DNA of 64,000 nucleotides from Anaerohalosphaeraceae bacterium (GCA_050309605.1 JBNRMN010000010.1:8936-72935); one strand, 5' to 3'. Positions 3,252-54,422 are shown, numbered from the stretch's first letter. The notes: generated by a model not told the origin, from the letters alone. Program-made: numbers and translations.

Positions 3252-3770
3252 ATGAATGAATTTCAAAACACAGAGGAAATGACGCTTCATTGGACACAAT
3301 GTCAATCTGTTGTGTCTGCTTATATTTCTTCTGCGATTCCCAATTTTGAAGACGCCAATGATGTTCTTCAAAGCGTGGCGTTGACCATTGTTCGTGCGTA
3401 TGACAAATACGACAAACAATCGTCTTTCACGGCGTGGGCAATTGGCATTGCGCGCAACGAAATACTTCACTATTATCGCAAAGTCGGGCGCGACCGGCAT
3501 GTTTTCGATGATGATTTGGTTCAGCAGATTGCCCAGGTTTATCAGGAAAACGAAAACGAATTTTCCGAGCTTAAAAAAGCGCTGGAACAGTGTTTGTCAA
3601 AGCTTCAAGGACGATGGAAAGAAATCATTCAGTTACGATATTTGCGCGGTATGGATGCTCGCCGCATTGGTCAGAGTTTCGGGATTTCTCAGAATGCGGT
3701 GTTTGCTCTGCTGCATCGGATTCGCCAGTCGCTTCGTGAGTGTATTCAGCGGACCGTGAAATATGAATAA
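3252..3770 (+). CDS. ECF sigma-70 factor (module 1)
   Basis: Region 2 (DANDVLQ...FTAWAIGIARNEIL) and region 4 (LEQCLSKL...IQLRYLRG...LHRIRQSLRECI). GAGG precedes ATG 3252. Stop overlaps the next start. Confidence 0.92.
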   Translation: MNEFQNTEEMTLHWTQCQSVVSAYISSAIPNFEDANDVLQSVALTIVRAYDKYDKQSSFTAWAIGIARNEILHYYRKVGRDRHVFDDDLVQQIAQVYQENENEFSELKKALEQCLSKLQGRWKEIIQLRYLRGMDARRIGQSFGISQNAVFALLHRIRQSLRECIQRTVKYE

Positions 3771-5463
3771 TAACGACAAGACAAGTCCGGAGCAGTTGTT
3801 TACGATTTATTTTGACGGTAGTCTTTCTCCGGGCCAGCGTCAGCAGTTGGTGGAATGGCTCAAAGCAAACAAGTCGCATATCAAACAGTTTGTTTATGCC
3901 TCTTATATCCACCGGGGAATGTACGATATTCTCTACGGTCAAGACACCCACAAAATCATCAGCCGAGGCGTTGATACGGAGGGGGTGTGTGCGGATGATT
4001 TCTGGAAAGCGTTGCTGGAGGAAGAAAAAAACGCGCCTTCGGTTGAACTTGAACAATCCGATGAATGTAAGCCTGATGTGATTGTGCCCGACCGCAGTCA
4101 GATTCAGGTGACGCGCGGGCATATTAATCGATTTGCATGGGGCACGGCGTTTGCATCCCTGGCGGCGTTTTTTTTCCTGTTGATGTATGTCCATCTCAAT
4201 CCGAGACCGGTTTCCGAGCCGGTGGCGGCGGTCAGCGATGTCATCAAAGTTCAGTCTCATGACTGGGATCCGGCCCTTCGTCCGGGGGTGCGGTTGTTGA
4301 CGCGGGACGGTGTGTATCGCGTGGGGCAGGGACTTGCCAAAATTCAACTTGACAACGGGGTTCATGCGGTGATTGAAGGTCCCGGTGAATTTGAATTGAT
4401 CAGTTATGATGAAATCGCACTTCACTCCGGTCGGCTCTTCGCCTCTGTGCCGCGTCGGTCGGTGGGGTTTATCGTCAGTACCTCCAATGCCAAAGTCATT
4501 GATCTGGGGACTGAGTTCGGCGTATATGCAGACGGATACGGCGACACCGAGATCCATGTGCTGGATGGACGAGTGTCTCTGGTCTCAGGGATGCGGGCCG
4601 ACGTTCGACATTCACAGGTGGTTTCTGAATCTCAGGCGTGTCGTGTCAGGGGCGATTCCGAGACCATTGAGCCGATTGACTTTCATCCCACCGCATTTGC
4701 TCGGGATATCAATTCAAAGACGCGGTTTATTTGGCGAGGTCAGCCGCTGGATCTGGCGGATATAGCGGGAGGGGGTAACGGATTGGGAACCGGTCGATTG
4801 AATGTATGTATTGATGTGGCCACCGGCAGGCTCAGAGAAGATATACCGCGAGCTCGCATTCAGTTGGAAAAGCCCTATGTGGCGACGGAGCAGTTGCCTT
4901 TTGTGGACGGGCTTTTTATTCCGGACGGACGAAACGGGCCCATTGAGGTGACCTCCGAGGGACATCTTTATGAGGCGCCTGCGACGCTGGGAGAAACGTA
5001 TTACGGCGTCTTTAACGGCTCTGTACTGCCGCTGCGAACGGGCGACAATTATGTGGATCATCCCGTTCAGTTCAGAGGGACTATTTACGGGACTTCCGAA
5101 CAGCCGGCGCTGATGCTGCATTCCAATTTGGGTGTGACGTTTGATTTACAGGCCATTCGTAAGACGCTGCCGCCCGGAAGACGTATCACAGGTTTTTCGG
5201 CTCGCTGCGGAATCGCTGAAGGTCCGCTGCGTTCGCGGCGCGACGAGGATTACTCGGACTTTTTTGTGCTGGTCGATGGCGTGGAGCGATTTCGGGCGGT
5301 GGATATGAATTATCTGTCGGAGATGAGGCCGGTGAAAGTGGAGTTGACGGACAACGATCGGTTTTTGACGTTGATGACCACGGACGGCAGAGACGGAACC
5401 CTTCATTTGGGCTGGTCGTTCTTTGCCGAGCCGCAATTGACCGTCGGTTTGGAACACGAGTAA
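3763..5463 (+). CDS. FecR-family membrane anti-sigma factor with C-terminal NPCBM/NEW2-like domain (module 1)
   Basis: N-terminal anti-sigma helices, one TM segment (TAFASLAAFFFLLMYVHL), FecR core (VIEGP...VIDLGTEFGV...EIHVLDGRV), and C-terminal LHSNLGVTFDL...VLVDG...DRFLTLMTTDG...FAEPQL. Confidence 0.88.
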   Translation: MNNNDKTSPEQLFTIYFDGSLSPGQRQQLVEWLKANKSHIKQFVYASYIHRGMYDILYGQDTHKIISRGVDTEGVCADDFWKALLEEEKNAPSVELEQSDECKPDVIVPDRSQIQVTRGHINRFAWGTAFASLAAFFFLLMYVHLNPRPVSEPVAAVSDVIKVQSHDWDPALRPGVRLLTRDGVYRVGQGLAKIQLDNGVHAVIEGPGEFELISYDEIALHSGRLFASVPRRSVGFIVSTSNAKVIDLGTEFGVYADGYGDTEIHVLDGRVSLVSGMRADVRHSQVVSESQACRVRGDSETIEPIDFHPTAFARDINSKTRFIWRGQPLDLADIAGGGNGLGTGRLNVCIDVATGRLREDIPRARIQLEKPYVATEQLPFVDGLFIPDGRNGPIEVTSEGHLYEAPATLGETYYGVFNGSVLPLRTGDNYVDHPVQFRGTIYGTSEQPALMLHSNLGVTFDLQAIRKTLPPGRRITGFSARCGIAEGPLRSRRDEDYSDFFVLVDGVERFRAVDMNYLSEMRPVKVELTDNDRFLTLMTTDGRDGTLHLGWSFFAEPQLTVGLEHE

Positions 5464-5507
5464 GCGCATGGAAGAAATTGCCTGATATTCAGCGGAGAAT
5501 TGTGAAA

Positions 5508-6404
5508 ATGAAAGTTTCAAAAGGATTTACGCTGATTGAACTGCTGGTGGTGATTGCGATTATCGCGCTGCTGATGGCCATCGTGGTCCCGGGGCTGAGG
5601 GCGGCCAAGCTCAAGGCGCAGCTTGTAATTGATATGTCCAATTTGAGCGGTCTTGCCAAAGCATGGTTTATGTATTCACAGAATTTTGACGGTGAACTGA
5701 TGGGAGGAAACGCGCCGGGAAACGCCGGCGGCGGTGTGGCCGGTTCGTGGACGAGGGCGCCTTATTTTACATGGGTGGATTACCCGATATCGAAAAGCAA
5801 TCCTGCGCAGTATGCCGGTGCGGATTTTGACTATCAGGAAGAGATTCTCGGTATTGAGAACGGGCTGATGTTTGACTATGTCGGAAAAGCGGAGATGTAT
5901 CACTGTGCGGCGGACAAGCGCTATTTGAGTCCCCCGGCGCGATCCGGGGCCGCCTCTTTGCACGGGGGATATCGGTCTTATTCGATGACCGGCGGCGCAC
6001 GAGGCGGCACGTGGAATGCGACGCTGGGTCGATACGCGGCGACAGGAGCCAATTTTCAATATGTGGCGGTAACCACGTTCTCACAGATCAAATCTCCCGG
6101 CAACAAATACATTTTCGTGGAAGAAAATGACGGACGCGGTCTGAATGCCGGCCCCTGGGATCAGGATATGCGGCAGTTGACTCAGCCCAGCTCAACGTGG
6201 CGTTGGGTGGATGTGCCGGCGGTTTGGCATATGGGACGCAGCAGTTTCGGATTTGCCGACGGTCATGCGGACGCTCACAAATGGAACGATCCCGACTTGA
6301 TTCCGGCGGCCGAGGAGGGTGTGCAGTATGTCCCCGTCAGTCCGGCCGGGGTGGAGGATTTTGCCTTTATTTTGCACGGTTTTCCTTTTTTGGAATTGCC
6401 GTGA
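5508..6404 (+). CDS. Prepilin-type N-terminal cleavage/methylation protein with C-terminal H-X9-DG motif (DUF1559-like, module 1)
   Basis: [30 protein letters not shown], and H-MGRSSFGFA-DG. GGAG precedes ATG 5508. Confidence 0.9.
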   Translation: MKVSKGFTLIELLVVIAIIALLMAIVVPGLRAAKLKAQLVIDMSNLSGLAKAWFMYSQNFDGELMGGNAPGNAGGGVAGSWTRAPYFTWVDYPISKSNPAQYAGADFDYQEEILGIENGLMFDYVGKAEMYHCAADKRYLSPPARSGAASLHGGYRSYSMTGGARGGTWNATLGRYAATGANFQYVAVTTFSQIKSPGNKYIFVEENDGRGLNAGPWDQDMRQLTQPSSTWRWVDVPAVWHMGRSSFGFADGHADAHKWNDPDLIPAAEEGVQYVPVSPAGVEDFAFILHGFPFLELP

Positions 6405-6590
6405 AAGGCGATGGAAATAGAGATTGCGAGATATGATGATTTGATACATGACGGAAATTGATCATAGGGTTAAGGATTGTCGCAGACACATTCAGAAAAC
6501 AGAGAAAGGAGAGTTGAGAGATGAAATGAGAAAGGGTGATGATTCCTGATTTCGCGTGGAAAACGTGGAATGATGGTGTCAACGTCAGTG

Positions 6591-6675: not shown

Positions 6676-8778
6676 ATGAGAAAGATGAGATTGATTTTTA
6701 TGGTCATTGCGACGGCACTGATAGGCATCGGTGCATTATCGCCCGTCCGTGCGGAGTTGGTGGCGCACTATCCCTTTGACGACGGGACCGCAACGGATAT
6801 CTCCGGCAACGCCAATCACGGTGTCCTTGTCGGGAATGTGGCTATGTCGCCCGATCCCGAACGCGGAAATGTGATGTATTTCCCCGGCGGAAACGGCAAC
6901 TATATTCGCGTGCCGGCGAGTCCCAGTTTGAACGCCGTTGCGGCATCTTATACCTTGGCGGTGTGGCTGAATCGTCCTGCCGACACCATGGGGCAGTTCA
7001 TTGAAAAAGGCGGAACCGGCCGCAGCGCGTGGTATGAGCCGCCGTGGGGCGTCCGTCTGGAGAGCGACGGTCTGCTGCGTTTGAACTGGGGCAATACTCC
7101 CTGGTACACGAATTCGGCGATTCCTCTTAATACCTGGACTCACGTGGCAATAGTCTTTGACGCTTCTCTTCCGTCGAACCAGCGAAAGGTGTACATTGAC
7201 GGCGTGCTGGATGCAGAAAGTGACTGGGCTGCCGCAAGTACGAACACCTATGATCTGTTCATTGGTACGGACTGGTATAGCGGTGTTTCGCGATGGGGTC
7301 TCAATGCGTATCTGAGTGATCTTCAAATTTTCAGTACAGCCCTGTCCGAGTCCGATATTATCAACGTGATGACTGGGACGGGAGTAACGGATATTGACCC
7401 GCCCAACGGTGCGATTCGTGTGCCGGTGGATCAGGTTCTTTCGTGGAATCCTCCAGAAATAGAGGATCCGAATTTTGTGATAACGGGGTATGATGTTTAT
7501 TTTGATCCGAATCAGGTCAAAGTGGCCGATGGCGATATTACGGTGAAAGTCGCAACCCATCAACCTGAAACCACGTATGATCCCGGATTACTGGACTATG
7601 TCAGAACCTATTACTGGCGTGTGGATGTGGTCGGCCAATACGATAATCTGCCCGATCCGAATATCTTTCCCGGGGCGGTTTTTTCCTTTACGACAATGTC
7701 CTTGTCGCCGGAAATTATCGGTCAGCCGGTCGATCAGGTGCGCGGCCCGGCCAACGGCAAGCCGGACGCCGTTCTGGCGGTCGAAGCGCTGAATGCGACC
7801 CATTATCAATGGTATAAAGACGACGCACCGATAGCCGGTTCCACGGATCCGACGCTGACGATTGCCGGCGTTCAGCCGGGCGACGAGGGGCAATACTATT
7901 GCGTCGTGTCCAATATCGACAGCCCCGATGAAATTCAATCAAATACGGTCTGGGTCGAATATGCCCGCCTGACCAGTCAGTGGGATTTCGAACAAACCCT
8001 GACGGATGCGATTGGCGACTATGACGGCATCTATTACGATCCGAACGAGTCGCCGGGCGTCTTTGCGACCGACAGCCGGTCGGGCAATTATGCGGTTCAG
8101 TTCGGCGGCGAAGACGATTGGGTTGAGCTGCCGGTGACGGCCTTGCCCAAAGCCGGCACCGAGATGACGTTTGCCTTCTGGGCCAAGAACTTCACGCCGT
8201 CGGTGGGGACGGTGACGTTGTACGCCAGTGCGGACGCCGCACCGGGTGACCGTCTGATCAACATCCATACCCCCTGGAGCAACAACAATGCTTATCTGGA
8301 TGTCTCCAACCCCGATGCGGGCGGAAGTTATGATCGGGTATCCGCCGGCGGTGCGGTAAACGGGGCAGTCGAGCCTTACTGGATTCACTGGGTCTTTACC
8401 AAAGACGCGGAAACCGGTGTGATGCGAATTTACCGAAACGGTCAGCGGGTCGGCCAGTCAACCGGTCAGACGCGACGCTACTCTGGCGCCGACCGATTCT
8501 TCCTCGGTGCCAATCGCAATGCCGACGAGCAGTTCGGTCAGTTCTTCAATGGGCTGATTGACGACCTGAGGATTTACAACTATGCTCTGGGTGAGGTTGA
8601 AACGGCGTATTTGTATTATGATATGGCCGGCGAAAAAGTATGTGTTGACCCGGCCGATCCTGTATTGGCCCTCTACGACTTTAACGGCAACTGTAAGATC
8701 GATCTGGGTGATATTGCCGAACTGGCCTCCCATTGGCTGACTTGCCAGCGGGTTCCGGATTGTATTGAACGTCCCTGA
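6676..8778 (+). CDS. Secreted LamG - FN3-like - Ig - LamG protein with Cys/EF-hand (dockerin-like) tail
   Basis: Signal peptide ending VRA; LVAHYPFDDG...WTHVAIVFD; YYWRVD; Ig YQWYKD...GQYYCVVSN; second LamG FNGLIDDLRIYNYAL; tail YDFNGNCKIDLGDIAELASHWL...CIERP. Confidence 0.85.
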   Translation: MRKMRLIFMVIATALIGIGALSPVRAELVAHYPFDDGTATDISGNANHGVLVGNVAMSPDPERGNVMYFPGGNGNYIRVPASPSLNAVAASYTLAVWLNRPADTMGQFIEKGGTGRSAWYEPPWGVRLESDGLLRLNWGNTPWYTNSAIPLNTWTHVAIVFDASLPSNQRKVYIDGVLDAESDWAAASTNTYDLFIGTDWYSGVSRWGLNAYLSDLQIFSTALSESDIINVMTGTGVTDIDPPNGAIRVPVDQVLSWNPPEIEDPNFVITGYDVYFDPNQVKVADGDITVKVATHQPETTYDPGLLDYVRTYYWRVDVVGQYDNLPDPNIFPGAVFSFTTMSLSPEIIGQPVDQVRGPANGKPDAVLAVEALNATHYQWYKDDAPIAGSTDPTLTIAGVQPGDEGQYYCVVSNIDSPDEIQSNTVWVEYARLTSQWDFEQTLTDAIGDYDGIYYDPNESPGVFATDSRSGNYAVQFGGEDDWVELPVTALPKAGTEMTFAFWAKNFTPSVGTVTLYASADAAPGDRLINIHTPWSNNNAYLDVSNPDAGGSYDRVSAGGAVNGAVEPYWIHWVFTKDAETGVMRIYRNGQRVGQSTGQTRRYSGADRFFLGANRNADEQFGQFFNGLIDDLRIYNYALGEVETAYLYYDMAGEKVCVDPADPVLALYDFNGNCKIDLGDIAELASHWLTCQRVPDCIERP

Positions 8779-8837: not shown

Positions 8838-11063
8838 ATGATGAAACGAGTAACAGGTCATATGTGGATCCTGCTGACGGTTCTGGTGATGGGAATCGCC
8901 GCCGTACAGGCGGACCTTTCTTTTGTCGATGATTTTGAGAATCGTACCGGCCACATCCACAATACGCCGACCGCCGGCGGAGACGGCACGTGGAGTACGA
9001 ACAATGGGACAACCGGCAATGTGGTGCTTGAAACGAACAGCGGCAGTACGGTGGTGCGTTTTATGACCACCACCGCCGGAGACGGTCGCGGCGTCGGGTT
9101 TGCCGACATCGACAATCCGGTTGAGAACACCGAGAAAGGGATTCTGTTCTTCCGATTCTCGGTGCGTTCTGAAAGCAACGCAGCAGATACGTATCTGGGA
9201 ATCCACGCGATGTCCGGCACAACACCGTTTGGCTCCAGCCAGCGGGCCAATCCGCAGGATTATATTGTCGCTGGGTTCCGCCTTGTCAACGGCGAGGGCA
9301 GTCTGGTCAATCTGGTGAACACAAGGGACTCCGATTCCGTCTTTTTGTCCGGGTTGTCCCGAGGGCAGTGGTATAATTGCTGGATTGAAGCGGATAATGT
9401 GGCCGATACGTTTAATCTGTTTATCAGCGAAGCGGACGGCCCGGCCGGACCGGCAACCCTTCCGACGCCCGCCGACAAAGTTGGCGATACCGTTCCCTTC
9501 GGCGTGGCGACGGATGATCCGCTGACCGGTGCGTTTTTCGGCACACCCAGTATTGGATCAACTGACAGATCAACCCAGCAGTCGGCACGTGTGTTCATTG
9601 ACGAGGTGTATTGGGACGGCGACAGGGGACTCAGTTCGCTGGTTGCGCAGAATCCCAATCCGGGCAACAATGCCGCTGGTGTGGCGCCGGAAGCGATCCT
9701 GTCGTGGGAAGCGCCGGACGATGAAAGCATCGGGCAGATACTGTGGTATGATGTGTATATGGATCCCAATGAGACAAAAGTGGCGACGGCGGATCCGGCC
9801 GCTTTACGAAGCGCTGCTCAGACCGAAACCGCTTATGATCCGGTGCCGGATATGCTGTTTGACAGCCGGTACTTCTGGCGGGTGGATACGACGGTTATTT
9901 TTGCGGCCGATCCCAATCAGGATATGGTAATCTCCGAAGGCGCTGTCTGGTCGTTTACCACCAAGACGCCCGCCCCCGAAATTGTCGGCCAGCCTGAGGA
10001 TGTGCTTGTCGGGCCGGGAGAAACGGCGGTCTTTGTGGTGGATGTCAGCAGCCCTTATGCGACGGCATCCTATCAATGGTATGCGTCAACCGACCGCGCC
10101 AACAATACGCCGGCCGATGATGTGCTGCTTGCCGGGGCAACATCGGAGACGCTGACGCTTTTGGACGTGTCAGCGGCTGACGAACGGTTTTATTACTGCG
10201 AAGTTTCCAATGTGTATAACGGGACGACCTATACGGTCTATTCCGATGCGGCGGCGCTGGGCGTCAAGCGCAAAGTCGCCCACTGGACGCTCGATGAACT
10301 CGTGAACGGACAGTACGCCGACAGCAGCGGTGAAGGCCGTCATGCCGATCCGAACGGCGTACCGGCCTTTATTCCCGGCGTCAATCCGGATTTGACCGGC
10401 AACGGTGTTGTCGTTGATCCGGACAATGGCTGGGCACATGCCGGCACGTGGGATCCATCGCTGTTTTCCGGTCAGTTGACGATTTCGATGTGGGTCAAAT
10501 GGGCCGGTCAGACCACCCCGTTCAGTTATCAGGGGTTGATCGGCAAGCGAAATGTCTATAGCAGCGATATGCGGTGGCAGTTGGAAATCGCAAACAACGC
10601 AGCCAGTCTGCTGACCTTCAAGAGCAATATCAACGGCATTACCGGACCGATTTTGCCGGTTGATGAATGGGAGCAGGTCGTTGTGACGTATGACGGGGGC
10701 ACCGCGACGATGTACCGCAATGGGACGCCGGTGGTCAGCGGGCCGGTCACGCTTAACGACGGCTTTGCAGCCAATATGATGCTTGGTGCGGTCGGCTGGG
10801 ATCCGACATCGCCGACGCCGACGTCGATTCTCAACGGTGCGCTGGATGACATTCAGCTTTTCAACTATGCCCTCGATCCGGTAACGGTGGCCTATTCTTA
10901 TACGGACATCTCCGGCGAAACGGCTTGTGTGAATCCGGATGATCCGGTTTTGCTCCGGTATGACCTGGACGGCGATTGTCAGGTCGGGTTGGGCGATCTG
11001 GTGATGTTGATAGAGCACTGGCTGGCCGGACAACTGGTGCCGGATGTTATTGATCGTCCGTAG
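8838..11063 (+). CDS. Secreted [unknown beta-rich domain] - FN3-like - Ig - LamG protein with Cys/EF-hand tail
   Basis: Signal peptide ending VQA; N-terminal domain shared with 11134; YFWRVD; FYYCEVSN; LNGALDDIQLFNYAL; YDLDGDCQVGLGDL...VIDRP. Confidence 0.82.
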   Translation: MMKRVTGHMWILLTVLVMGIAAVQADLSFVDDFENRTGHIHNTPTAGGDGTWSTNNGTTGNVVLETNSGSTVVRFMTTTAGDGRGVGFADIDNPVENTEKGILFFRFSVRSESNAADTYLGIHAMSGTTPFGSSQRANPQDYIVAGFRLVNGEGSLVNLVNTRDSDSVFLSGLSRGQWYNCWIEADNVADTFNLFISEADGPAGPATLPTPADKVGDTVPFGVATDDPLTGAFFGTPSIGSTDRSTQQSARVFIDEVYWDGDRGLSSLVAQNPNPGNNAAGVAPEAILSWEAPDDESIGQILWYDVYMDPNETKVATADPAALRSAAQTETAYDPVPDMLFDSRYFWRVDTTVIFAADPNQDMVISEGAVWSFTTKTPAPEIVGQPEDVLVGPGETAVFVVDVSSPYATASYQWYASTDRANNTPADDVLLAGATSETLTLLDVSAADERFYYCEVSNVYNGTTYTVYSDAAALGVKRKVAHWTLDELVNGQYADSSGEGRHADPNGVPAFIPGVNPDLTGNGVVVDPDNGWAHAGTWDPSLFSGQLTISMWVKWAGQTTPFSYQGLIGKRNVYSSDMRWQLEIANNAASLLTFKSNINGITGPILPVDEWEQVVVTYDGGTATMYRNGTPVVSGPVTLNDGFAANMMLGAVGWDPTSPTPTSILNGALDDIQLFNYALDPVTVAYSYTDISGETACVNPDDPVLLRYDLDGDCQVGLGDLVMLIEHWLAGQLVPDVIDRP

Positions 11064-11078
11064 CATAAGGTTTTGCAG

Positions 11079-11108
11079 AGGGAAGCGTCGCCGCGGCGGC
11101 GCTTCCCT
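11079..11108 (+). terminator. GC-rich intergenic hairpin (RNA stabiliser or attenuator; no strong U-tract)
   Basis: AGGGAAGCGTCGCC-gc-GGCGGCGCTTCCCT. The single mismatch is a U.G wobble on the transcribed strand. Confidence 0.65.
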
Positions 11109-11133
11109 GATTGTTAAGAAGAAAGGGGGCGCT

Positions 11134-40608: not shown

Positions 40609-40624
40609 CCTCAATTGAAAGGTT

Positions 40625-42301: not shown

Positions 42302-42309
42302 AATTCGTG

Positions 42310-42846
42310 TTATCCAACTGATAAAATACGTTGAACACAGCCTAACAACAGGGCATTGAGTCGGGCGTTAACCCGATAGACAGCGGCCAGTGAAACGCCG
42401 ATTCGATGCGATATTTTTTTGGCTGTTAATCCCTCGGAATATTTTAATTTAAGAAAATCACGGTCTTTTTTAGGTAGTTTTTGGAGACACTGTCGAAGCG
42501 CACGTGTACGTTGTTCAGTGTCATCAAAAAGACGTTGACTGTCTTTTTCAAGAAGAGACAAGACGGTTTCATCTAATTGAAGATGTCTTGCCTTGTTTTT
42601 TCTTCGAAATTCCAAGATTTTATATTTTGCAATCGTAACGGCCCACGCTACAAAATCCGTACCATGTTTATAAGCGTCGAATTTTTGCCACATGGTCATG
42701 GTCGTTTCCTGCATAATATCCTCTGCATCCGATTCATTAGGGACCATGCAGAAGATAAACGAGTTGATGCGAGAACTGTTCGCGGCAAACAGACCGATAA
42801 AATCGGCTTTTTGGCCAAAGTCATCTTTTATTTCACTTTGATTCAT
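42310..42846 (-). CDS. ECF sigma-70 factor (module 2)
   Basis: DAEDIMQE...FVAWAVTIAKYKIL and ALRQCLQKLP..DRDFLKLKYSEG. Start is ATG 42846 or slightly upstream (ORF track 42870). Confidence 0.92.
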   Translation of the reverse strand: MNQSEIKDDFGQKADFIGLFAANSSRINSFIFCMVPNESDAEDIMQETTMTMWQKFDAYKHGTDFVAWAVTIAKYKILEFRRKNKARHLQLDETVLSLLEKDSQRLFDDTEQRTRALRQCLQKLPKKDRDFLKLKYSEGLTAKKISHRIGVSLAAVYRVNARLNALLLGCVQRILSVG

Positions 42847-43002
42847 AACAGAAATTCGTGCCATACCCAATCAACCAAAATGCCAGGGAGAGAATTTAAC
42901 CGTGAACCTAATAAGCAATGATAGGGGGTGCTAAATTTTTTCAAAATAATACAAGACAAAGTTTACCCTTTCTTCAAACAAAGGCATAAGCGGAACGTGT
43001 TT

Positions 43003-46713: not shown

Positions 46714-46784
46714 AATTCTTGTCTCGCAACATAGGGAACATCGCCCATCAGTCAATCGCAAATAATGACAGCCTCTCGATATGG

Positions 46785-46811
46785 ATTTCCCGTAAAACAC
46801 TATTTCTTTCA
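46785..46811 (-). promoter_or_regulatory. Variant promoter TGAAAG-N15-GGAAAT
   Basis: Shares the extended context ACTTCAAAA..TGAAAGAAAT..GTTTTA with the element at 48774-48814. Confidence 0.4.
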
Positions 46812-46987
46812 CGAACTTTTTGAAGTCAATCGTTTTTAATCCGGAACAGATGGAAAACCAGACAATATCTTACTTAAAGAAGGAGTAAAAACTTAAGGTC
46901 GAGATATTTTGTACGGCTGCGACAGCAGGGGGGCGAAAGCCGTTTAATATCATTTTTGGAAAGCTGTTTTCAGTATTGAAAACGCAG

Positions 46988-48733
46988 TCATCTAAAGGTT
47001 AAGAAATGGACTGCATCAGGCAGCAATGGGCTATCATAATAGCTCAAATAAGGTTCATGTTGGTCGGATTTCGAAAAACGAATTTTCGAATCATAACCGG
47101 ACGAACGTACGCCGGTCCCCGTGATGCGCCCTGCCGGGGGCGGGGCGTTTGAGATGTATTTGACATGTTCTGAGTCGGAAACGGTATAGGGTCCGGCGCT
47201 GTCGTTGATCAGGGTATCCTCAAAGGTAACATTCTCGCAATATTTGACGGTACAGCCATTGCCGGCGTTGATGTGAACGTTCTTAAACACAACATCCTGA
47301 ATGCGGCTTTCGGGCAGCCCGGTACACTGAATGGCGGTTCTTACTCCGCCTTCTGACCGGATGTTCTCATAACGAATATTTCTGAATACAGGCGGTCTCG
47401 GCGCCGGTGTACCATCATTATTGACACTGTAATCCATTGTCAGTCGAATGCCGAGCCGCATTCGGGACAGGGTAATATCCCGAAACACAATGTTTTCCAC
47501 CGTCCCGCCGCGAACGACGTTGGATTTAATATCCAGACCTTCCCAGGAGATTCCGCTGATTGTGCAGTCGGAAACAAACACGTTTCTGACGCCGCCGGAC
47601 ATTTCACTTCCGATGACAATGCCCCCCATCGATCCATCAATCACATTATCGGTAATCCGGATGTCCGTTGATGGTCTGCCAACCTCATATCCAATCAGGT
47701 TTTTACCCGATTTTACGGCGATGGAATCGTCTCCCGTTTTGAAATAATTATCGAAAATATAGACATGGCTGGACGAATCAATGCCGATGCCGTCTCCGTT
47801 CCTGATCCGGTATTCCGGATTTCGGGAGATGACTTTTAACTGGCTGAATGTCAGCTTTTTGCTGTAAATCGCGTGGTTGGTCCAGCCCGGTCCATAACTG
47901 AGGGTCAGTCCATGGACATAGACATCTTCTGTGTTGATTAAGTGAATCAAACGTCCGCGAGATCGAATGCCCGCTTCACGTGCCTGAGCGCGGTCCAAAA
48001 CACCCCCTGACCCATCAATGGTTCCCTGTCCGATAATTTTTATGTTGAATACATTGGGCGGGCCGTGGGTATCACGCTGGCCGGCATTTAACAGGCTTGC
48101 AAAACACATCAAGTCCCATCCTTCAAAACGCGATTCAATAAAGGGTTTATAGTCGTCCAGATTGGTCGTGCCCTTGAGTGTGCCTCCCTCAGCGACGTTA
48201 AGCGTCATATTGCTTTTCAGAAACAACGCTCCGCTCAAAAAAGTGCCTTTCGGGATCAATACCGTTCCCCCTTCGGTGCAGGCGTCGATTGCCTTTTGGA
48301 TGGCTTGGGTATTGACGGTTTCCCCGTCGCCGACAGCACCGTATCGGGTAATATCGAATATCTCCCCCTTCGGTTCAGTTGTGACCTGTAGCGCATGACT
48401 CGCGGCAGAAAGTACGCCGCTTGTGTCTTTTGATTTTACTGTAAACGTATAGGAAGTGTCGGGTTCAAGCCCTGTCACATTGAAGCCGCCTTTGGTTGTT
48501 TCACCAATCAGCTTGCCATCCTGATAGATACAGTAACTGGAAAAGGATGCTTGAACCCAATTGTCCGGCTTGTCCCAGAGCAGCAGAATCATTGAATCCG
48601 TCACGGCCGCCGGCGGAGACATTAGGTTTTGAGGGGGAACAAGAGTGTCTGCATTGAGATTGCCCGCAATGACAGAACCAAGGATGGTTCCCGTTACTGC
48701 CAGTATGAGTAATGACGATTGTCTTTTCAGCAT
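46988..48733 (-). CDS. GH28 exo-poly-alpha-galacturonosidase-like enzyme with N-terminal FN3 domain
   Basis: FN3 (LLWDKP...GLEPDTSYTFTV), YGAVGDG..NTQAIQKAID, SGALFLKSN, NGDGI, GDDSIAVKSG, IGSEMSGG. ATG 48733 follows GGAAAGGA. Confidence 0.9.
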   Translation of the reverse strand: MLKRQSSLLILAVTGTILGSVIAGNLNADTLVPPQNLMSPPAAVTDSMILLLWDKPDNWVQASFSSYCIYQDGKLIGETTKGGFNVTGLEPDTSYTFTVKSKDTSGVLSAASHALQVTTEPKGEIFDITRYGAVGDGETVNTQAIQKAIDACTEGGTVLIPKGTFLSGALFLKSNMTLNVAEGGTLKGTTNLDDYKPFIESRFEGWDLMCFASLLNAGQRDTHGPPNVFNIKIIGQGTIDGSGGVLDRAQAREAGIRSRGRLIHLINTEDVYVHGLTLSYGPGWTNHAIYSKKLTFSQLKVISRNPEYRIRNGDGIGIDSSSHVYIFDNYFKTGDDSIAVKSGKNLIGYEVGRPSTDIRITDNVIDGSMGGIVIGSEMSGGVRNVFVSDCTISGISWEGLDIKSNVVRGGTVENIVFRDITLSRMRLGIRLTMDYSVNNDGTPAPRPPVFRNIRYENIRSEGGVRTAIQCTGLPESRIQDVVFKNVHINAGNGCTVKYCENVTFEDTLINDSAGPYTVSDSEHVKYISNAPPPAGRITGTGVRSSGYDSKIRFSKSDQHEPYLSYYDSPLLPDAVHFLTFR

Positions 48734-48773
48734 TGTAATCATCCTTTCCAAACAGTGTCGGTTTATTATTGAC

Positions 48774-48801
48774 TGTTCGCATAAAACGGGAATTTCTTTC
48801 A
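48774..48801 (-). promoter_or_regulatory. Putative ECF-type promoter TGAAAG-N16-CGAACA
   Basis: Near-identical -10 context to 664 (TTATGCGAAcAgtCAATAATAA versus TTATGCGAAtACAATAATAA). Confidence 0.65.
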
Positions 48802-49058
48802 ATAATTTTGAAGTTCGAATTAGTTTTTGACTCGCCCACGTCACAACAGGTGGATCGTCCGGACTTTTGCTTTCGGCTGAACGGCATCGGACGGCGTGCG
48901 GATACTGATTGTCTTAGATGAGGTGCGGTTTTATCTACATTAGTGTGTCCTTGGGTTTCTTGTGCCTGTTTCTCCAATATCAGAGGACATTATTGATGCC
49001 AAGAATCTGAACATTTTTCCTTCGGCTCACAAAAAAAGCGTGCAATTTCAGGAAATCC

Positions 49059-49125: not shown

Positions 49126-49662
49126 TTGGATAATCAAGAGAACACGAAATCATTGACCCTGAACTGGACCTCGGCACAGCCGACGGTCCTGGCGTATATC
49201 TCATCCATGGTGCCTAATTTTCAGGATGCTGAGGATATCCTGCAAACCGTTGCGTTGACCATTGCGGAAAAGTACGATACGTTTGACCCGTCTTGTTCCT
49301 TTCTTTCGTGGGCGCTGGGCATTGCACAAAATAAAATTTATGATTATTTCCGAAAACAGTCGAAACAGCGTAAAATTAAAATACTGGACACCCACACCGT
49401 AGCTCAAATCGCCGAGATTTTTGAAAAAGAAAGCTCTCATCTTAACGAGATGCGCTACGCATTGGAATTTTGTCTTGGCAAACTGTCAGGGCATTGGCGG
49501 CAGATTCTTGAATTGCGGTACATTCGGGAGTTGAGCACCCAGCGCATCGCCCAGCAGTTAGGGATGTCCAAAAACGCAATTTTCATCACCCTCCATCGTG
49601 TCCGCATAGCCTTGCAGGAGTGCATTCAAAAACGATTGTCCGCGGAGCGAAATCCTCTATGA
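49126..49662 (+). CDS. ECF sigma-70 factor (module 3)
   Basis: TTG start after GGAG; DAEDILQ...FLSWALGIAQNKI and LELRYIRE...LHRVRIALQECI. Close paralog of 3252. Confidence 0.92.
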   Translation: MDNQENTKSLTLNWTSAQPTVLAYISSMVPNFQDAEDILQTVALTIAEKYDTFDPSCSFLSWALGIAQNKIYDYFRKQSKQRKIKILDTHTVAQIAEIFEKESSHLNEMRYALEFCLGKLSGHWRQILELRYIRELSTQRIAQQLGMSKNAIFITLHRVRIALQECIQKRLSAERNPL

Positions 49663-51404
49663 GATACGATCCGGAAATTCTGTTAAGTCTTTACCTGAAC
49701 GACAACGAAGAAATGACAGACGAACAGTTTGAATGCCTTCGGTCATGGATTAACGCATCCGAGGCGCATGCTCTTCAATTTGTTCGCGCCTCTTATATGC
49801 ATCGATTGGTTCATGACCATATGACGGGAAATGATTTGCAGAAGCGCTTTATGATGCCTGTCGAGCAGCAGGATGCAGAGTATCGACGCAAAGACGGGTA
49901 TTGTGAAGCAGCATTTTGGGACGCCCTCTCACAGCACGAAAAAGTTGCCGAAACGCTGGTGCTGCCGAATGAGTCGTCTGAACAGCAGAAAGAATTGATT
50001 TCCGATGTTCGCCGGCGCAAAGCCATGCTGAAAACCGGACAAAAAAAAATCCCTTTCAGTCTATGGCTGTCGCTGGGTTCTTTGGCGGCCTTGTTTATGA
50101 TGGTGGCGTATGTCATGCTCAATCCCCGCGTTGCCGAGCCGATCGCAACACTGACAGACAGCCATCAGGCCCAATGGCAGTGGAAGTCGCTGGAAATCGG
50201 CGCGCGATTGACCAACGCACAGTATCCGATATCGCTGCTTTCCGGCTATGCAAAATTGCAGTTTGATAACGGGGCGGATGTCATTCTTGAAGGTCCCGTC
50301 GAATTTCAGCTTGTCAGCGCCGAACAAATGCGTGTTTCCCACGGTAAACTGACAGCCGTCGTTCCTCCCTCGGCGTCCGGCTTTCGTGTGGATGCTCCGG
50401 AGATGAGCATCATTGACTTGGGGACCGAATTTTCGGTCGGCATCGACCGGAACGGCTTTTCGGCGGTCCACTTGTACGAGGGCAGCGCTTCGCTCCAGGT
50501 CGGCGAGGTCGGCAATCGCAAAACCAGCCATTTACTAACCGCCGGACAAGCTCGACGAGTGGAGGCCGCCACTGGACGGATTGAGGTGATTCCGCTGGAG
50601 CAGAACACATTTGTCCGACGTCTTGATTCTGAAAAACAGTTTCTCTGGCGGGGTGAATCGGTTGATCTGGCCGCGATTGTGGCAGGAGGAGACGGGTTCA
50701 GCCCGGTCCGCGGAATCGCCGGCATTAATCCCAAAACCGGTCAGCCGGTTACGGGATACAGGTTTACAGTTCACTATTCGACGGCGACGTACCGCCCTGT
50801 TCCCGACAATCCCTTTGTGGACGGCGTGTTTATTCCGGACGGCGGGCTGGGGGAGACGATCATTTCCTCAGCCGGTCATATTTTTAAGGATTGCCCCGAT
50901 ACCGCCGGCAGAAGTGACAATCCCGTCGGAGCGACCAGTCACGATATTTTGACTTTTTGCGATTATGATGAGGATGTGATTCCCGAAGCGCGGCGAAATA
51001 AAATGGCCGTCTTCAATGGAGTTGCCAGGGGGACCGTCGAGGAGCCGGCGGTTTTGATGCACAGCAATGTAGGGATTACGTTTGATTTGCAAGCCATACG
51101 AAGCCGGCTGTCGGGAGCCGAAATCAGCCAGTTTGACTGCTTCATTGGGTTGCCGGGAAGTTTGAGAGGTGCAACGTCCCGGTCGGATGTGTGGGTATTG
51201 ATAGATGGACAGCTCAGATACAGTAAACACGAATTGATGCCCGAAGCCGGGTTGCTGGACATAACGATGGATCTGGCCGCTTCAGATCGGTTCCTGACGA
51301 TTGCCGTGACAGATGCCGCCCACACCTATGAGCCGGGCGAAGGAACATATGCCGATGATTATGTCTATCTGGTCAATCCGAAACTGGTCTTAAAGGGGCG
51401 TTAA
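49659..51404 (+). CDS. FecR-family anti-sigma factor with C-terminal NPCBM-like domain (module 3)
   Basis: ATGA overlap with the sigma gene; TM segment LWLSLGSLAALFMMVAYVML; ILEGP, IIDLGTEFSV; MHSNVGITFDL...VLIDG...DRFLTIAVTD. Confidence 0.88.
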   Translation: MRYDPEILLSLYLNDNEEMTDEQFECLRSWINASEAHALQFVRASYMHRLVHDHMTGNDLQKRFMMPVEQQDAEYRRKDGYCEAAFWDALSQHEKVAETLVLPNESSEQQKELISDVRRRKAMLKTGQKKIPFSLWLSLGSLAALFMMVAYVMLNPRVAEPIATLTDSHQAQWQWKSLEIGARLTNAQYPISLLSGYAKLQFDNGADVILEGPVEFQLVSAEQMRVSHGKLTAVVPPSASGFRVDAPEMSIIDLGTEFSVGIDRNGFSAVHLYEGSASLQVGEVGNRKTSHLLTAGQARRVEAATGRIEVIPLEQNTFVRRLDSEKQFLWRGESVDLAAIVAGGDGFSPVRGIAGINPKTGQPVTGYRFTVHYSTATYRPVPDNPFVDGVFIPDGGLGETIISSAGHIFKDCPDTAGRSDNPVGATSHDILTFCDYDEDVIPEARRNKMAVFNGVARGTVEEPAVLMHSNVGITFDLQAIRSRLSGAEISQFDCFIGLPGSLRGATSRSDVWVLIDGQLRYSKHELMPEAGLLDITMDLAASDRFLTIAVTDAAHTYEPGEGTYADDYVYLVNPKLVLKGR

Positions 51405-51469: not shown

Positions 51470-53497
51470 ATGAAAAAGTTGTTGGTGTTAAGTATGATGT
51501 GGGCAGCGTGCTTATCTGCTGTCTCTGCGGCGGTGATTGTTAATGTCGAGCGTACCAACGGGTATGGGCCGGACAATCGAGCTCCAATCGGCGCGTATGA
51601 ACCGGACACGCCGCCGCTGCCGTGGCCGGAAGGGGGTCTGCAGACCGGAGTCAGCAGAGCGTTAACCCCTTATGTGTATTCAGATCGGACGTTTTGGTGG
51701 AACAACGTACCCGACGAGATGGTCGGTTGGGAACACGTTCGTACCTTTAATAATGACAAAGAGCCGGAAGCAGCCGATGTGAAGTACACGGTGACGACAT
51801 CTAAAGCCGCTGCCATTTGGATTGCGTTTGAAAGTCGTCTTGCCACCAGTACAGATTACTGGCGTCCGCTCGAGGAGCCCATCACTCCGTGGGGGCAAAA
51901 CGCTCCTGAGTCGCCTCAGGTTTTAGTGGATTGGCTGACGCGCCATGTAGGCCCGCCCGGCACATTTACTGATACGGGTATGACCGTAAACGTTCAAGAG
52001 GGCGATCCCGGTACGACACGGACGTTTTTAGTCTATTCTGCGCAACTTCCTGCCGGTTCGTATGAGTTTACCTGGCAAGCCAATCGAAACATAAGTAATT
52101 ACATCATAGGGTCCGCTCCTCCGCCGAGCAAGGCCTGGGGTCCGAATCCGTATGACGGCGAGGAGCTGGTGGAAATTGAAAGGGTACTGTCCTGGGAAGC
52201 TCCGGAAGATCCGAACCTGACGATCTACGGCTATGATCTCTATCTGGATCCCAACGAAACCAAAGTCACAGCCGGCGACCCGACGGTTTTGAAGGCCGAA
52301 GGCTTGACGGAAACCAGCTACCCAGCCGATTTGCTGTATGACACGCAGTTCTTCTGGAGAGTGGATGTCGCGGGTTTGTATGACGATGACCCGAATCAGA
52401 TGACGGTGGTCAACCAGGGACCGGTCTGGCGTTTCTCGACGGCCCCCGAGGCGCCTGTGATCGTGACCCAGCCGGTCGGACAGTCGCGCGGCCCCGCTGC
52501 CGGCAGACCGGACGCCCTGCTCGCGGTTGAAGCCACCAATGCGACCGATTATCAGTGGTATAAGGACGGCGTCGAGATTCCGGGGGCCACCGAAGCGACC
52601 CTGTCGATTCCCGGCGTTACGCTCGAAGACGAAGGATTGTATTACTGCGTTGCGTCCAATGCCATCGATGCGGTGGTGTCGGATGAGGTGTGGCTGGAGT
52701 ATGCCCGTCTGACCAGTCATTGGACCTTTGATGACACGTATGGGGATGCCGTTGGCGGATATGACATCATACCGGCCGCTGAACCGAACGCTCCGACGTT
52801 TGCAGAGGGCAAAATCGGTAATGCCCTTGCACTTGACGGGATCAGCCAGTTTGCACGTATTCCGGCTGAAGCGCTGCCGAAGAATCAGCACGCTTTGACG
52901 ATTGCGTTCTGGGCCAGAAATGATATCGGTACGGCCTCTGCAACGACGGCCTTTTACGCCAATACGATTGAAGAACCGGGCAATCGCCTGATCAGTGCGC
53001 AGATTCCGTTTACCAATGGCAATGCTCAGTTTGATCTCGGCAATGCCGACAGCGGAGGAGGCTATGATCGTGCCAGTGCCTCTATGCGGCCCGCGGACGA
53101 TTGGGTATTCTGGGTAATTTCCAAAGATGTCGAAACCGGCGCTATGACGGTCTATCAGAACGGTTCTGAACTGGGTCGGAATGCCAATGCACAACGGCTG
53201 TTTTACGGCGTTGAAGAGTTCTTCGTCGGTGCCAGGAATTTTGATGACGGACTGGGACAGTTTTTCGGCGGAGCGATAGACGATCTGAAAATCTACAACT
53301 ATGCCCTGGATCCGGTCGAAATCGCCTATCAGTATCATGACGTAACCGGCGATCCGGTATGTGTCAATCCGGACGATCCGGTCCTTCAGCAGTTTGATTA
53401 CGACGGCAATTGTATCGTGGACATTGGCGATCTGGCGGTCTTTGCATCGAATTGGCTCTCCTGCCAGAGAGTGCCCGACTGTTTTGAGCGTCCGTGA
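51470..53497 (+). CDS. Secreted [novel ~190-aa domain] - FN3-like - Ig - LamG protein with Cys/EF-hand tail (module 3)
   Basis: GGAGG RBS and signal peptide; FFWRVD; YQWYKDG...LYYCVASN; FGGAIDDLKIYNYAL; FDYDGNCIVDIGDL...PDCFERP. Confidence 0.85.
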   Translation: MKKLLVLSMMWAACLSAVSAAVIVNVERTNGYGPDNRAPIGAYEPDTPPLPWPEGGLQTGVSRALTPYVYSDRTFWWNNVPDEMVGWEHVRTFNNDKEPEAADVKYTVTTSKAAAIWIAFESRLATSTDYWRPLEEPITPWGQNAPESPQVLVDWLTRHVGPPGTFTDTGMTVNVQEGDPGTTRTFLVYSAQLPAGSYEFTWQANRNISNYIIGSAPPPSKAWGPNPYDGEELVEIERVLSWEAPEDPNLTIYGYDLYLDPNETKVTAGDPTVLKAEGLTETSYPADLLYDTQFFWRVDVAGLYDDDPNQMTVVNQGPVWRFSTAPEAPVIVTQPVGQSRGPAAGRPDALLAVEATNATDYQWYKDGVEIPGATEATLSIPGVTLEDEGLYYCVASNAIDAVVSDEVWLEYARLTSHWTFDDTYGDAVGGYDIIPAAEPNAPTFAEGKIGNALALDGISQFARIPAEALPKNQHALTIAFWARNDIGTASATTAFYANTIEEPGNRLISAQIPFTNGNAQFDLGNADSGGGYDRASASMRPADDWVFWVISKDVETGAMTVYQNGSELGRNANAQRLFYGVEEFFVGARNFDDGLGQFFGGAIDDLKIYNYALDPVEIAYQYHDVTGDPVCVNPDDPVLQQFDYDGNCIVDIGDLAVFASNWLSCQRVPDCFERP

Positions 53498-53535
53498 TTA
53501 AATTGTATAGAGTGTTGAAATTGTCAATCGTACTG

Positions 53536-53564
53536 ATCCGGGGTCCGCTCGGCGGACTCCGGAT
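53536..53564 (+). terminator. 13-bp hairpin between the LamG scaffold and prepilin genes (module 3)
   Basis: ATCCGGGGTCCGC-tcg-GCGGACTCCGGAT with a G.U wobble on the + strand. Confidence 0.65.
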
Positions 53565-53633
53565 ATATGTCTATAATGTAAAAGCGGCGCCAATGACGGC
53601 CGTCGATCAAAATGACCATAATGGAGAATACGT

Positions 53634-54422
53634 ATGAAACAGACAGGATTGTGCAAGAAAGGATTTACGCTGATCGAATTACTGGTGGTCATTGCCATTA
53701 TCGCACTGCTGATGTCGATCGTAACCCCGGCAATGCGAAAGGCCAAAGAGTATGCCCGAAAGATCATGTGTCAGTCCAACTACAAACAGTTGGGCCTTGC
53801 ACTCGGCTCGTACGAGGCTCACACAGGTTATAATTTCCGAAATTACAATTCCGCCGCTGATGTAGATGACTTGTCGCGCCACTGGTTCTGGTATAACGGT
53901 ACCGGCGACTATGCTCACGAAGCGTCGCCCTACGCCATCCGGCATTTGCGAAATTCCGGCGTGCTGCCTTCCTCTGAGGTTCTGTTTTGTCCGGGCGTCA
54001 GGAACCTGTCGTTTGATCAAAACTATCCGGCCAGCAAAGTGGTTGCGGGGGATTATGCGCCTCAGAACACAGATAATATCTATGCAAGCGTGGAAAACGG
54101 CGCGTTGCCTTCAAACGACAGACCGTTGTTTTGGAGTACTCATACATGGATTTGGAAAAAAGAGATTCGGGGAGATGTCGTCTCGGTCAATAATATGTCT
54201 TCCGGTGCGATGATGTGCGATATGACCGAAGGCAGTTGGCAATTCGCTGCGGAGACCAATTCTACATTTCGAAATTTCTTTAATGCCGTCGGCGTTTCCC
54301 GGATGTTTCAGCACTGCAATGTTTTAATGAACGATATGAGTGTCAAGAATCCGACCGATAAGGATGAAGAATTGGTTCAATGGCTGTGGAATTCAGATCG
54401 CTGGGCCGGATCGGGATATTAA
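53634..54422 (+). CDS. Prepilin-type N-terminal cleavage/methylation protein (module 3), degenerate C-terminal motif
   Basis: [34 protein letters not shown] and LFCPG. The C-terminal region reads [11 protein letters not shown] instead of H-X9-DG. Confidence 0.9.

Follow-up and report, generated by a model that had tools for sequence, protein, structure and literature searches.

A 64,000-nt stretch of DNA from an Anaerohalosphaeraceae bacterium (GCA_050309605.1 JBNRMN010000010.1:8936-72935; hereafter the window) contains three divergent cassettes, each of which combines an extracytoplasmic function (ECF) sigma factor, a FecR-type anti-sigma factor, one or more LamG-containing scaffold proteins and a prepilin-type protein (hereafter pilin). 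Based on gene content, domain architecture, folds, conserved motifs and linkage statistics, we propose that each cassette is probably a glycan-responsive sensing module of the FecI/FecR type, which operates without a TonB-dependent transducer, serves one glycan, employs a lectin as co-receptor and carries the pilin as an optional accessory.

Pfam scans of 32 tiling open reading frames (ORFs), called mechanically, recovered the four shared components in all three cassettes where an earlier note on this DNA, made from the sequence alone, had placed them (Table 1). The gene order differs, since the pilin precedes the LamG genes in cassette 1 and follows them in cassettes 2 and 3, and the intergenic gaps can be short, i.e., 15 nt between the FecR and pilin genes in cassette 1 and 5 nt between the pilin gene and the GH27-like gene in cassette 2. 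Judging by alignments of the window copies, in which the FecR proteins share 34% and the pilins 24–34% identity, the cassettes are old paralogues. No family of TonB-dependent receptor, SusD or ABC transporter was matched in the 32 ORFs, as the earlier note had reported for the window. Across the host genome (3.4 Mb in 97 contigs, 99.7% complete), SusD (PF07980) has no match, TonB-dependent receptors (PF00593) have two, both on contigs without a sigma gene above the TIGR02989 cut-off, and ABC permeases have four, which supports the description of these regions as SusCD-free loci that resemble polysaccharide utilization loci (PULs) and are headed by ECF sigma and anti-sigma genes.

The sigma factors of all three cassettes pass the cut-off of TIGR02989, the NCBIfam model of the Rhodopirellula/Verrucomicrobium ECF family. 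Sigma genes of this type number 22 in the genome, and every one of them (22/22) adjoins, and often overlaps, a gene for a FecR-type anti-sigma factor. The anti-sigma factor of cassette 1 consists of a cytoplasmic anti-sigma domain, one transmembrane (TM) helix, a FecR domain with a Gly-Thr pair and a C-terminal module resembling CBM51/NPCBM, NPCBM being the Pfam name of CBM51, a carbohydrate-binding module (CBM). An AlphaFold2 model of the cassette 2 copy, built from 75 family members (pLDDT 87.3), displays a helical N-terminal cytoplasmic domain (residues 1–86), a TM helix (119–141), a beta-rich FecR domain (145–300) and a C-terminal beta-sandwich (320–558). The top Foldseek matches for this model are CBM51 modules, including 2vmg (TMt 0.67, E 3.4e-6), the galactose-binding CBM51 of Clostridium perfringens GH95; the model also matches 4m0n, a putative anti-sigma factor of Parabacteroides (TMt 0.50). 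Across the family, Pfam detects FecR (PF04773) in 73/75 members and NPCBM in 64/75 (best E 6.8e-14), and with the latter part, the anti-sigma factor becomes a candidate glycan sensor in its own right, a predicted role that the earlier note had missed. A search of solved-structure sequences with the FecR profile returned no match. In a sample of 401 genomes of the phylum, this one included, the full-length architecture occurs in 5/6 other genomes of the same family and in a few other lineages, and the C-terminal module is also found in ~1000-aa proteins of another family; three candidates were scored per genome, and copy numbers are not readable from this sample.

Gly241 and Thr242 are invariant in 75/75 anti-sigma sequences and align, weakly, with Gly181-Thr182 of E. 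coli FecR (hhalign, E 0.0017), the bond that is described in excerpts of PMC12036975 as the self-cleavage site at which the FecR cleavage cascade starts. Judged by these residues, the FecR Gly-Thr self-cleavage site is kept in the cassette anti-sigma factors. The most variable region of the family is the cytoplasmic anti-sigma domain (entropy 2.78 vs 1.98 for the FecR domain), which fits insulated paralogous pairs and is expected if 22 pairs are to stay apart.

The scaffolds constitute the second constant element. Among 65 aligned scaffolds, Pfam detects Laminin_G_3 in 65/65 and Ig_3 in 63/65, and no catalytic family except for a weak GH131_N match in 2/65. The N-terminal modules vary and include a second LamG domain, F5/8-C (12/65), X25 (2/65), CBM48 (2/65) and CBM96 (1/65); accordingly, variability peaks in the N-terminal third and conservation in the Ig region and the C-terminal tail. 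Two features had gone unnoticed in the earlier note: the scaffolds carry Sec signal peptides, and their C-terminus is a single dockerin-like repeat with conserved cysteines (consensus D-x-N-x-D-C-x-V-D-L-x-D-F-A-x-F-A-x-x-W-L-x-C). In cassette 2, the signal peptide follows a Met at residue 48 (about nt 40491), which is the likely true start of the scaffold. Given the varied head, the constant tail and the secretion, the scaffolds are best read as secreted, non-catalytic lectins whose head would be substrate-specific and whose constant half would serve in anchoring or coupling. A search of solved-structure sequences matched only their generic Ig and LamG domains, and a TafC match below the NCBIfam cut-off was rejected as a pilus link, as it reflects the LamG domain shared with the haloarchaeal Tat-fimbria subunit.

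A regular expression for the tail matches 88 times in 83 ORFs of the genome, with 71 of the matches at the C-terminus, in LamG scaffolds and many enzymes. Within the window, the tail is carried by four proteins other than scaffolds, i.e., the F5/8-C protein (13438–17364), the PL6-like protein (19277–21790), the polysaccharide lyase of cassette 3 and the CotH protein (43003–46812), in which it sits near the N-terminus; among the window ORFs, Pfam Dockerin_1 matches only the PL6 and CotH proteins. No match to cohesin (PF00963) was found in the 99.7% complete genome, and a cellulosome was rejected on this ground; the repeat looks like a lineage-wide sorting or anchoring tag, as far as its distribution tells. 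A second type of C-terminal tag was also observed. Small PEP-CTERM proteins, one of which contains a LamG domain, follow the pilin in the cassette on contig C64 (60078–60953) and FecR in the cassette on C85 (23423–24076), and another lies a few genes downstream of an orphan pilin on C87 (12614–13642); the genome encodes two exosortases. The presence of PEP-CTERM and dockerin-like tails at one cassette slot suggests that two C-terminal sorting tags serve the same position. Furthermore, in L001, a locus orthologous to cassette 1, the N-terminal LamG module of the first scaffold (window 6811–7339) is replaced, at L001:4539–5138, by sequence that is 92.7% identical to the cassette 2 scaffold (window 40422–39823), which points either to an exchange of lectin heads between cassettes by recombination or to a chimera in the metagenome assembly.

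The linkage of these components was evaluated by random placement in the genome (2000 trials) and by counts in relatives. Of 32 scaffolds, 19 lie within 8 kb of a FecR gene (random mean 3.2, maximum 10). The 28 pilins of the DUF1559-like type are within 3 kb of a scaffold in nine cases (random mean 1.6; nine reached in 0/2000 trials) and within 5 kb of a FecR gene in eight (random mean 2.0; eight reached in 1/2000). A scaffold directly follows in most of the 22 cassettes, and the three cassettes that lack one (C4, C61 and C85) have at most 5 kb of contig remaining downstream. Because the family hidden Markov models (HMMs) derive from the copies in the window, the counts may miss divergent pilins or scaffolds; in addition, ORFs were called mechanically and contig ends truncate several cassettes. 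For the relatives, a pattern scan yielded 511 stretches with FecR-type relatives, from which 78 loci in 28 Phycisphaerae assemblies were kept and 58 FecR genes with at least 8 kb downstream were counted. A sigma gene is adjacent in 54/58 loci; a co-oriented LamG scaffold occurs within 8 kb downstream in 51/58 and upstream in 13/52, and a co-oriented prepilin in 30/58 and 6/52, respectively, contrasts that are descriptive, since the loci are kin and Fisher p-values overstate them. The 58 loci are arranged as FecR-LamG-pilin (15), FecR-pilin-LamG (10), FecR-LamG only (26), FecR-pilin only (5) and neither (2). The linkage assumed in the earlier note is thus far beyond chance, but its obligate four-gene unit, in which pilin and scaffold fill the susC/susD slot, finds no support in that form, since a pilin is present in only 30/58 relatives and inside about 6/22 cassettes of this genome.

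Each cassette of the window is followed, across small gaps, by co-oriented carbohydrate-active enzymes (CAZymes), and here the ORF listing and Pfam bear out what had been described. The run of cassette 1 comprises an F5/8-C/FN3 protein, GH97, a PL6-like protein with LamG and dockerin, GH95, and GH2 fused to an alginate lyase; that of cassette 2 comprises GH27-like+ThuA, a weak melibiase-like protein, a GH95-like protein and a GH29 fucosidase; and that of cassette 3 comprises a 605-aa protein with a weak GH67M match only, a polysaccharide lyase with a dockerin-like tail and a giant CotH/LTD protein, which runs off the window end. Pfam scans of the 19 cassettes outside the window revealed CAZymes or sulfatases downstream on C4 (GH115), C6 (GH88, an SSF symporter and PL1), C33 at 119 kb (GH3), C56 (GH98), C64 (sulfatase) and C96 (PL11 and GH2); on C61, C70, C85 and C94, at most about 4 kb of contig is left downstream of the cassette.

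From these elements, the following mechanism can be outlined, in which we infer the ligand, the signalling step, the regulon, and the localization and role of the pilin. The single-pass FecR-type anti-sigma factor would hold the ECF sigma factor at the inner membrane and expose to the periplasm a FecR beta-domain with the putative Gly-Thr self-cleavage site, followed by the CBM51-like carbohydrate-binding module. The same operon would supply a secreted non-catalytic lectin, whose cassette-variable N-terminal binding module may determine substrate specificity and whose conserved C-terminal half (Ig, LamG and dockerin-like tail) may anchor the lectin or couple it to the sensor. A glycan bound by the CBM51-like module, either directly or via the LamG protein, would trigger a FecR-type cleavage cascade and the release of the sigma factor, which would then transcribe its own operon, with the genes for the LamG protein, for the downstream enzymes and, in cassettes that have one, for the pilin. 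As an optional accessory, the DUF1559-type prepilin would be processed by the single prepilin peptidase of the genome and used by a machine resembling a type II secretion system (T2SS) or type IV pilus (T4P), most likely for the export or display of locus products.

Several results weigh against this mechanism. The NPCBM matches in the window are marginal (24.3 and 24.7 bits vs a cut-off of 23.9), and the anti-sigma factor of cassette 3 has no NPCBM match in Pfam. The CBM51-like module is fairly conserved across paralogues (entropy 2.16), and because paralogues should sense different glycans, it may bind a common partner and not a glycan. Since some enzymes have LamG folds as well, the scaffolds may be catalytic. 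The promoter search, in which k-mer enrichment, visual inspection and Gibbs sampling were applied to the sequence upstream of 22 sigma genes and subsequently of 98, found no shared ECF-type bipartite promoter upstream of the 98 genes, only A/T-run elements (11.3–11.6 bits vs 8.1–8.3 in shuffles); the word TT[GCT]AAAAA occurs in 17/87 AT-rich sigma upstream regions vs 45/360 AT-rich controls. Upstream of the cassette 1 sigma gene (3140–3190), a three-way footprint revealed the conserved blocks TTGTCCATAYGAT and TTCGGGAAAT, both of which are kept in an orthologue whose flanking intergenic sequence has diverged and which, from their conservation, could be promoter or operator elements.

The output of the cassettes adds to these reservations. 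No recognizable enzyme was detected by Pfam after the cassettes on C45, C59 and C89 (71 kb), and those on C33 (21 kb) and C89 (53 kb) are followed by CotH/LTD giants. Altogether, where the downstream sequence is long enough, about one cassette in three precedes no recognizable CAZyme, which had escaped the earlier note; CAZyme runs are headed by the cassettes of the window and by roughly half of the informative ones, not by all, and the output is thus not always glycan degradation. These loci could be explained if the cassettes mainly controlled surface architecture and adhesion, deploying LamG, PKD, CotH/LTD and PEP-CTERM adhesins on a surface or glycan cue, with enzymes as one output among others. 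Such a scheme would also accommodate the PEP-CTERM proteins that come right after FecR or the pilin on C85 and C64, along with the two exosortases of the genome, and the two CotH giants of the window. However, GH, PL or sulfatase genes directly follow the three cassettes of the window and no fewer than six others, separated from them by small gaps, and the N-terminal modules of the scaffolds are of CBM type, which leaves the adhesion scheme quite improbable. As a separate observation, giant CotH-kinase-like proteins with LTD, CHB_HEX_C and Fn3_assoc were found four times within or beside cassettes in the regions examined.

The pilins of all three cassettes carry a class III signal peptide with Gly-1, Phe+1 and Glu+5, followed by the hydrophobic alpha1 segment (PF07963, TIGR02532); strong conservation of the alpha1 helix contrasts with a highly variable head. 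An H-X9-DG motif occurs in the pilins of cassettes 1 and 2, not in that of cassette 3, which is the only window pilin that matches PF07596 (DUF1559/SBP_bac_10; 27.2 bits, cut-off 23.3). This family, for which we know of no established function, is matched by 17/46 cassette-linked pilins; TIGR04294 is not among the NCBIfam matches of the window pilins. As a lead only, 30/30 of the nearest ESM-Atlas clusters of the pilin combine N_methyl and SBP_bac_10. A model of the cassette 2 pilin (pLDDT 73.5) displays a long alpha1 helix (11–61) and a small beta head. Foldseek returned nothing significant for it (E ≥ 0.4), and in a VIA search, pilins or pseudopilins make up 20 of the 21 top rows, ComP, PilA4, EpsG and PulG among them (Z ≤ 5.3). 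On these values, the predicted fold of this protein resembles that of a pilin and not that of a periplasmic binding protein; sequences of solved structures were matched over the alpha1 helix only. When metagenome contigs were mapped on cassette 2, a depth spike appeared at 37937–38203, the N-terminal helix of the pilin, with many contigs diverging on both sides, which indicates that the leader/helix nucleotide sequence is common to many other genes or organisms in the samples.

Comparison of orthologous loci highlighted that the pilin is labile. In blastn alignments, L001 (about 95% nucleotide identity) lacks window positions 5556–6475, a deletion that leaves only the first 26 codons of the pilin gene, and L002, a second orthologue of cassette 1 (77–87% identity), has an 87-bp spacer in place of the pilin. 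The sigma, FecR, LamG and downstream genes of both are collinear with the window, and the pilin is kept in L014, an orthologue of cassette 3. An obligate pilin in cassette 1 is contradicted by its absence from these otherwise conserved loci, which marks sigma, FecR and LamG as the fixed unit and the pilin as a frequent accessory. Pilins outside the sigma cassettes often lie beside LamG scaffolds or head or adjoin genes for GH38, sulfatase, BNR, GH2/GH43 or SSF symporters; others have polysaccharide-biosynthesis, glycosyltransferase or efflux-pump surroundings. The association of DUF1559-type pilins with LamG scaffolds and glycan-degrading genes, which had been put forward previously, is supported as an enrichment by random placement, the downstream/upstream contrast and these surroundings.

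These findings bear directly on the role assigned to the pilin in the earlier note, i.e., that it joins a shared T4P- or T2SS-like fibre, which together with a cognate LamG scaffold captures the glycan for entry through a secretin and thereby replaces SusC/SusD. The genome offers some grounds for this proposal, as it combines the absence of SusD, two TonB-dependent receptors and only four ABC permease genes with seven secretins, 13 T2SSE ATPase matches, of which at least eight are full-length GspE/PilB-type proteins, and one prepilin peptidase (Peptidase_A24). The conserved Gly-1/Phe+1/Glu+5 leader and alpha1 helix with their variable head, the proximity of nine of the 28 DUF1559-like pilins to scaffolds, the downstream excess of pilins in relatives and the glycan-related neighbours of non-cassette pilins point in the same direction. 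Against this, the pilin is missing in 28/58 related loci and in most of the 22 cassettes, it is deleted in L001 and absent from L002 with the other genes kept, the window holds no gene for an assembly ATPase, platform protein, secretin or prepilin peptidase according to Pfam, and a pilin is not a channel. An optional, evolutionarily labile pilin weakens the replacement of SusC/SusD by pilin and scaffold, and we regard such uptake as unlikely. Fibre-mediated polysaccharide uptake has reportedly been proposed for planctomycetes. A shared type IV-filament machine of retractile or piston-like action, to which locus-specific pilins and tailed LamG lectins would lend substrate-specific heads, and which would pull captured polysaccharide through a secretin into the periplasm, where the CBM51-bearing anti-sigma factor would report its arrival, is a doubtful prospect as well; if true, it would represent a pilus-based SusCD replacement and the molecular basis of that uptake. 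It may be noted separately that seven secretins and thirteen T2SS-type ATPases form an unusually rich set of type IV-filament machines for a 3.4-Mb genome.

A related possibility dispenses with capture and uptake altogether: the pilins could be cassette-specific T2SS pseudopilins that act as secretion adaptors and recruit the enzymes and LamG proteins of the locus to a shared type II secretion machine, perhaps via the dockerin-like tail. GspG is the best NCBIfam match of all three pilins over the N-terminal ~55 residues, below the cut-off, the structural neighbours include EpsG and PulG, and several T2SS-like gene clusters are present in the genome; short GspG-like pilins (136–164 aa) lie on C2, C3, C43 and C67, contigs that also bear a secretin and an ATPase. 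The shared C-terminal dockerin-like tag on many locus products, with no cohesin found to receive it, would suit such recruitment. However, half of the cassettes have no pilin, and a link between the dockerin-like tail and the pilins is not among the results; moreover, we know of no substrate-specific major-type pseudopilins. The secretion-adaptor role is rather unlikely, i.e., about as likely for the pilins as the pilus-uptake role.

Analogous to the FecI/FecR/FecA systems (E. coli Fec; FoxR/PupR of Pseudomonas), the ECF sigma gene adjoins the gene for a single-pass anti-sigma factor with a periplasmic FecR domain, the Gly-Thr site is conserved and aligned with E. coli G181-T182, and many paralogous pairs occur per genome. 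Contrary to these systems, the cassettes contain no TonB-dependent transducer, with only two receptors for 22 cassettes; the anti-sigma factor ends in a CBM51-like module, the partner position is taken by a secreted LamG protein, the presumed output is CAZymes instead of iron uptake, and the sigma factor is of the TIGR02989 type of the Planctomycetes-Verrucomicrobia-Chlamydiae (PVC) superphylum. The sensing of polysaccharides by anti-sigma factors is described for the SigI/RsgI pairs of Clostridium thermocellum and other cellulosome producers (Nataf 2010 and Kahel-Raifer 2010, as cited in excerpts of PMC11557425). Like them, the cassettes form multiple paralogous pairs, their anti-sigma factors have a predicted extracytoplasmic carbohydrate-binding module, as suggested by the fold and the NPCBM matches, and their presumed targets are polysaccharide-degrading proteins, many of them dockerin-tagged. 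However, the ECF and FecR-type families are unrelated to SigI and RsgI, for which no RsgI match appeared in the Pfam scans of the window or of the 75 members, and the cassette organism is a diderm with an extra LamG partner, an optional pilin and no cohesin found.

Bacteroidota PULs with ECF sigma/anti-sigma factors and SusC-like transducers likewise combine sigma, anti-sigma, binding proteins and CAZymes, presumably for one glycan each. In the cassettes, by contrast, susC and susD are lacking, and their slot is taken by a lectin-type protein, soluble or anchored, at times along with a pilin, and neither can form an outer-membrane channel. The cassette system is a member of neither class, as it has no RsgI/SigI and no SusC/SusD. 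The scaffolds resemble the surface glycan-binding proteins (SGBPs) of PULs and the non-catalytic CBM proteins of cellulosomes in being secreted, multi-domain, non-catalytic proteins with CBM-type modules that head enzyme runs; they differ in that they are not lipoproteins, end in a single dockerin-like repeat with cysteines and are tightly linked to an anti-sigma gene. The pilins share with the H-X9-DG prepilins of the PVC superphylum (DUF1559/SBP_bac_10, PF07596) the prepilin leader, the PF07596 match in cassette 3 and the H-X9-DG motif in cassettes 1 and 2, and the subset studied here differs in its placement in sigma/FecR/LamG operons. A search of full-text literature, whose coverage leaves out most subscription journals and the Sedimentisphaerales genome papers, found no description of a FecR-CBM51 anti-sigma factor or of the cassette.

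Planctomycetota and related bacteria rank among the major degraders of complex glycans, which are often sulfated or fucosylated, and, to our knowledge, have no SusCD machinery of the kind that accounts for glycan sensing and capture in Bacteroidota. The cassettes name candidate parts for polysaccharide recognition in these organisms, with 22 insulated switches in one 3.4-Mb genome, CBM51-like sensors, variable-headed lectins in most cases and, often, a pilin of the large DUF1559 family. If the proposed mechanism is true, regulons, and hence substrates, would become predictable from sequence in uncultured Phycisphaerae. It would also constitute a TonB-independent form of FecR-type signalling, provide the first catabolic context for DUF1559 proteins and represent a convergent counterpart of the clostridial RsgI system.

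Table 1. Positions of the cassette components and associated features. Coordinates are nucleotides of the window unless preceded by a contig name.
Feature	Position	Strand	Basis
Cassette 1 ECF sigma factor (TIGR02989 type)	3231-3770	+	Pfam Sigma70_r2/r4; TIGR02989 150.3 bits, cut-off 124.55
Cassette 1 anti-sigma factor	3763-5463	+	Pfam FecR + NPCBM; family alignment; model of paralogue
Cassette 1 prepilin-type protein	5478-6404	+	Pfam N_methyl; prepilin leader; H-X9-DG motif
Cassette 1 tandem LamG/Ig/LamG scaffolds (n=3)	6676-8778, 8838-11063, 11044-13332	+	Pfam Laminin_G_3, Ig_3; signal peptides; dockerin-like tails
Cassette 1 enzyme run	13438-28041	+	Pfam
Cassette 2 ECF sigma factor (TIGR02989 type)	42310-42870	-	Pfam; TIGR02989 141 bits
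Cassette 2 FecR-type anti-sigma factor with CBM51-like module (modelled copy)	40625-42301	-	Pfam NPCBM; AlphaFold2; Foldseek; hhalign
Cassette 2 LamG/Ig/LamG scaffold	38332-40632	-	Pfam
Cassette 2 prepilin-type protein, H-X9-DG motif	37418-38212	-	Pfam N_methyl; model; VIA
Cassette 2 enzyme run	28987-37413	-	Pfam
Cassette 3 ECF sigma factor (TIGR02989 type)	49126-49662	+	Pfam; TIGR02989 139.6 bits
Cassette 3 FecR-type anti-sigma factor	49620-51404	+	Pfam FecR; full-length alignment with other copies
Cassette 3 Ig/LamG scaffold, signal peptide, dockerin-like tail	51470-53497	+	Pfam
Cassette 3 prepilin-type protein, degenerate H-X9-DG	53634-54422	+	DUF1559/SBP_bac_10 match; collinear in orthologue L014
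Cassette 3 downstream run	54568-63999	+	Pfam
GH28 + CotH/F5/8-C protein, upstream of and co-oriented with cassette 2 sigma gene	43003-48844	-	Pfam
CotH giant, window	43003-46812	-	
CotH giant, window	58777-63999	+	
CotH giant, contig C33	C33:25855-30069		
CotH giant, contig C89	C89:43322-49345		
Dockerin-like tails in window	11000-11063, 13240-13332, 17200-17364, 21700-21790, 58700-58795		Regular expression

The cassette 1 sigma gene has an alternative ATG start at about 3252, and the pair of genes for GH28 and the CotH/F5/8-C protein upstream of cassette 2 probably belongs to a separate or preceding transcription unit. An Rfam scan of the window returned no family at the gathering score. Where cassettes 1 and 2 converge, a short ORF (27855–28957, +) matches only the first ~40 profile positions of the GH29 alpha-L-fucosidase and a second short ORF gives a weak DUF5077 match; these may be gene remnants beside the intact GH29 gene (28987–30030, −). 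Finally, DNA near-identical to 37418–42870 occurs in runs from 12 studies. No RNA run is listed among them, the one labelled transcriptomic being probably DNA with short, scattered contigs only, which carries no information on expression. Two rows that may be the source aside, the studies, three runs of which were mapped, are labelled as poultry litter, soil, gut, sludge, anaerobic digester, biogas fermenter, compost and plain metagenomes.

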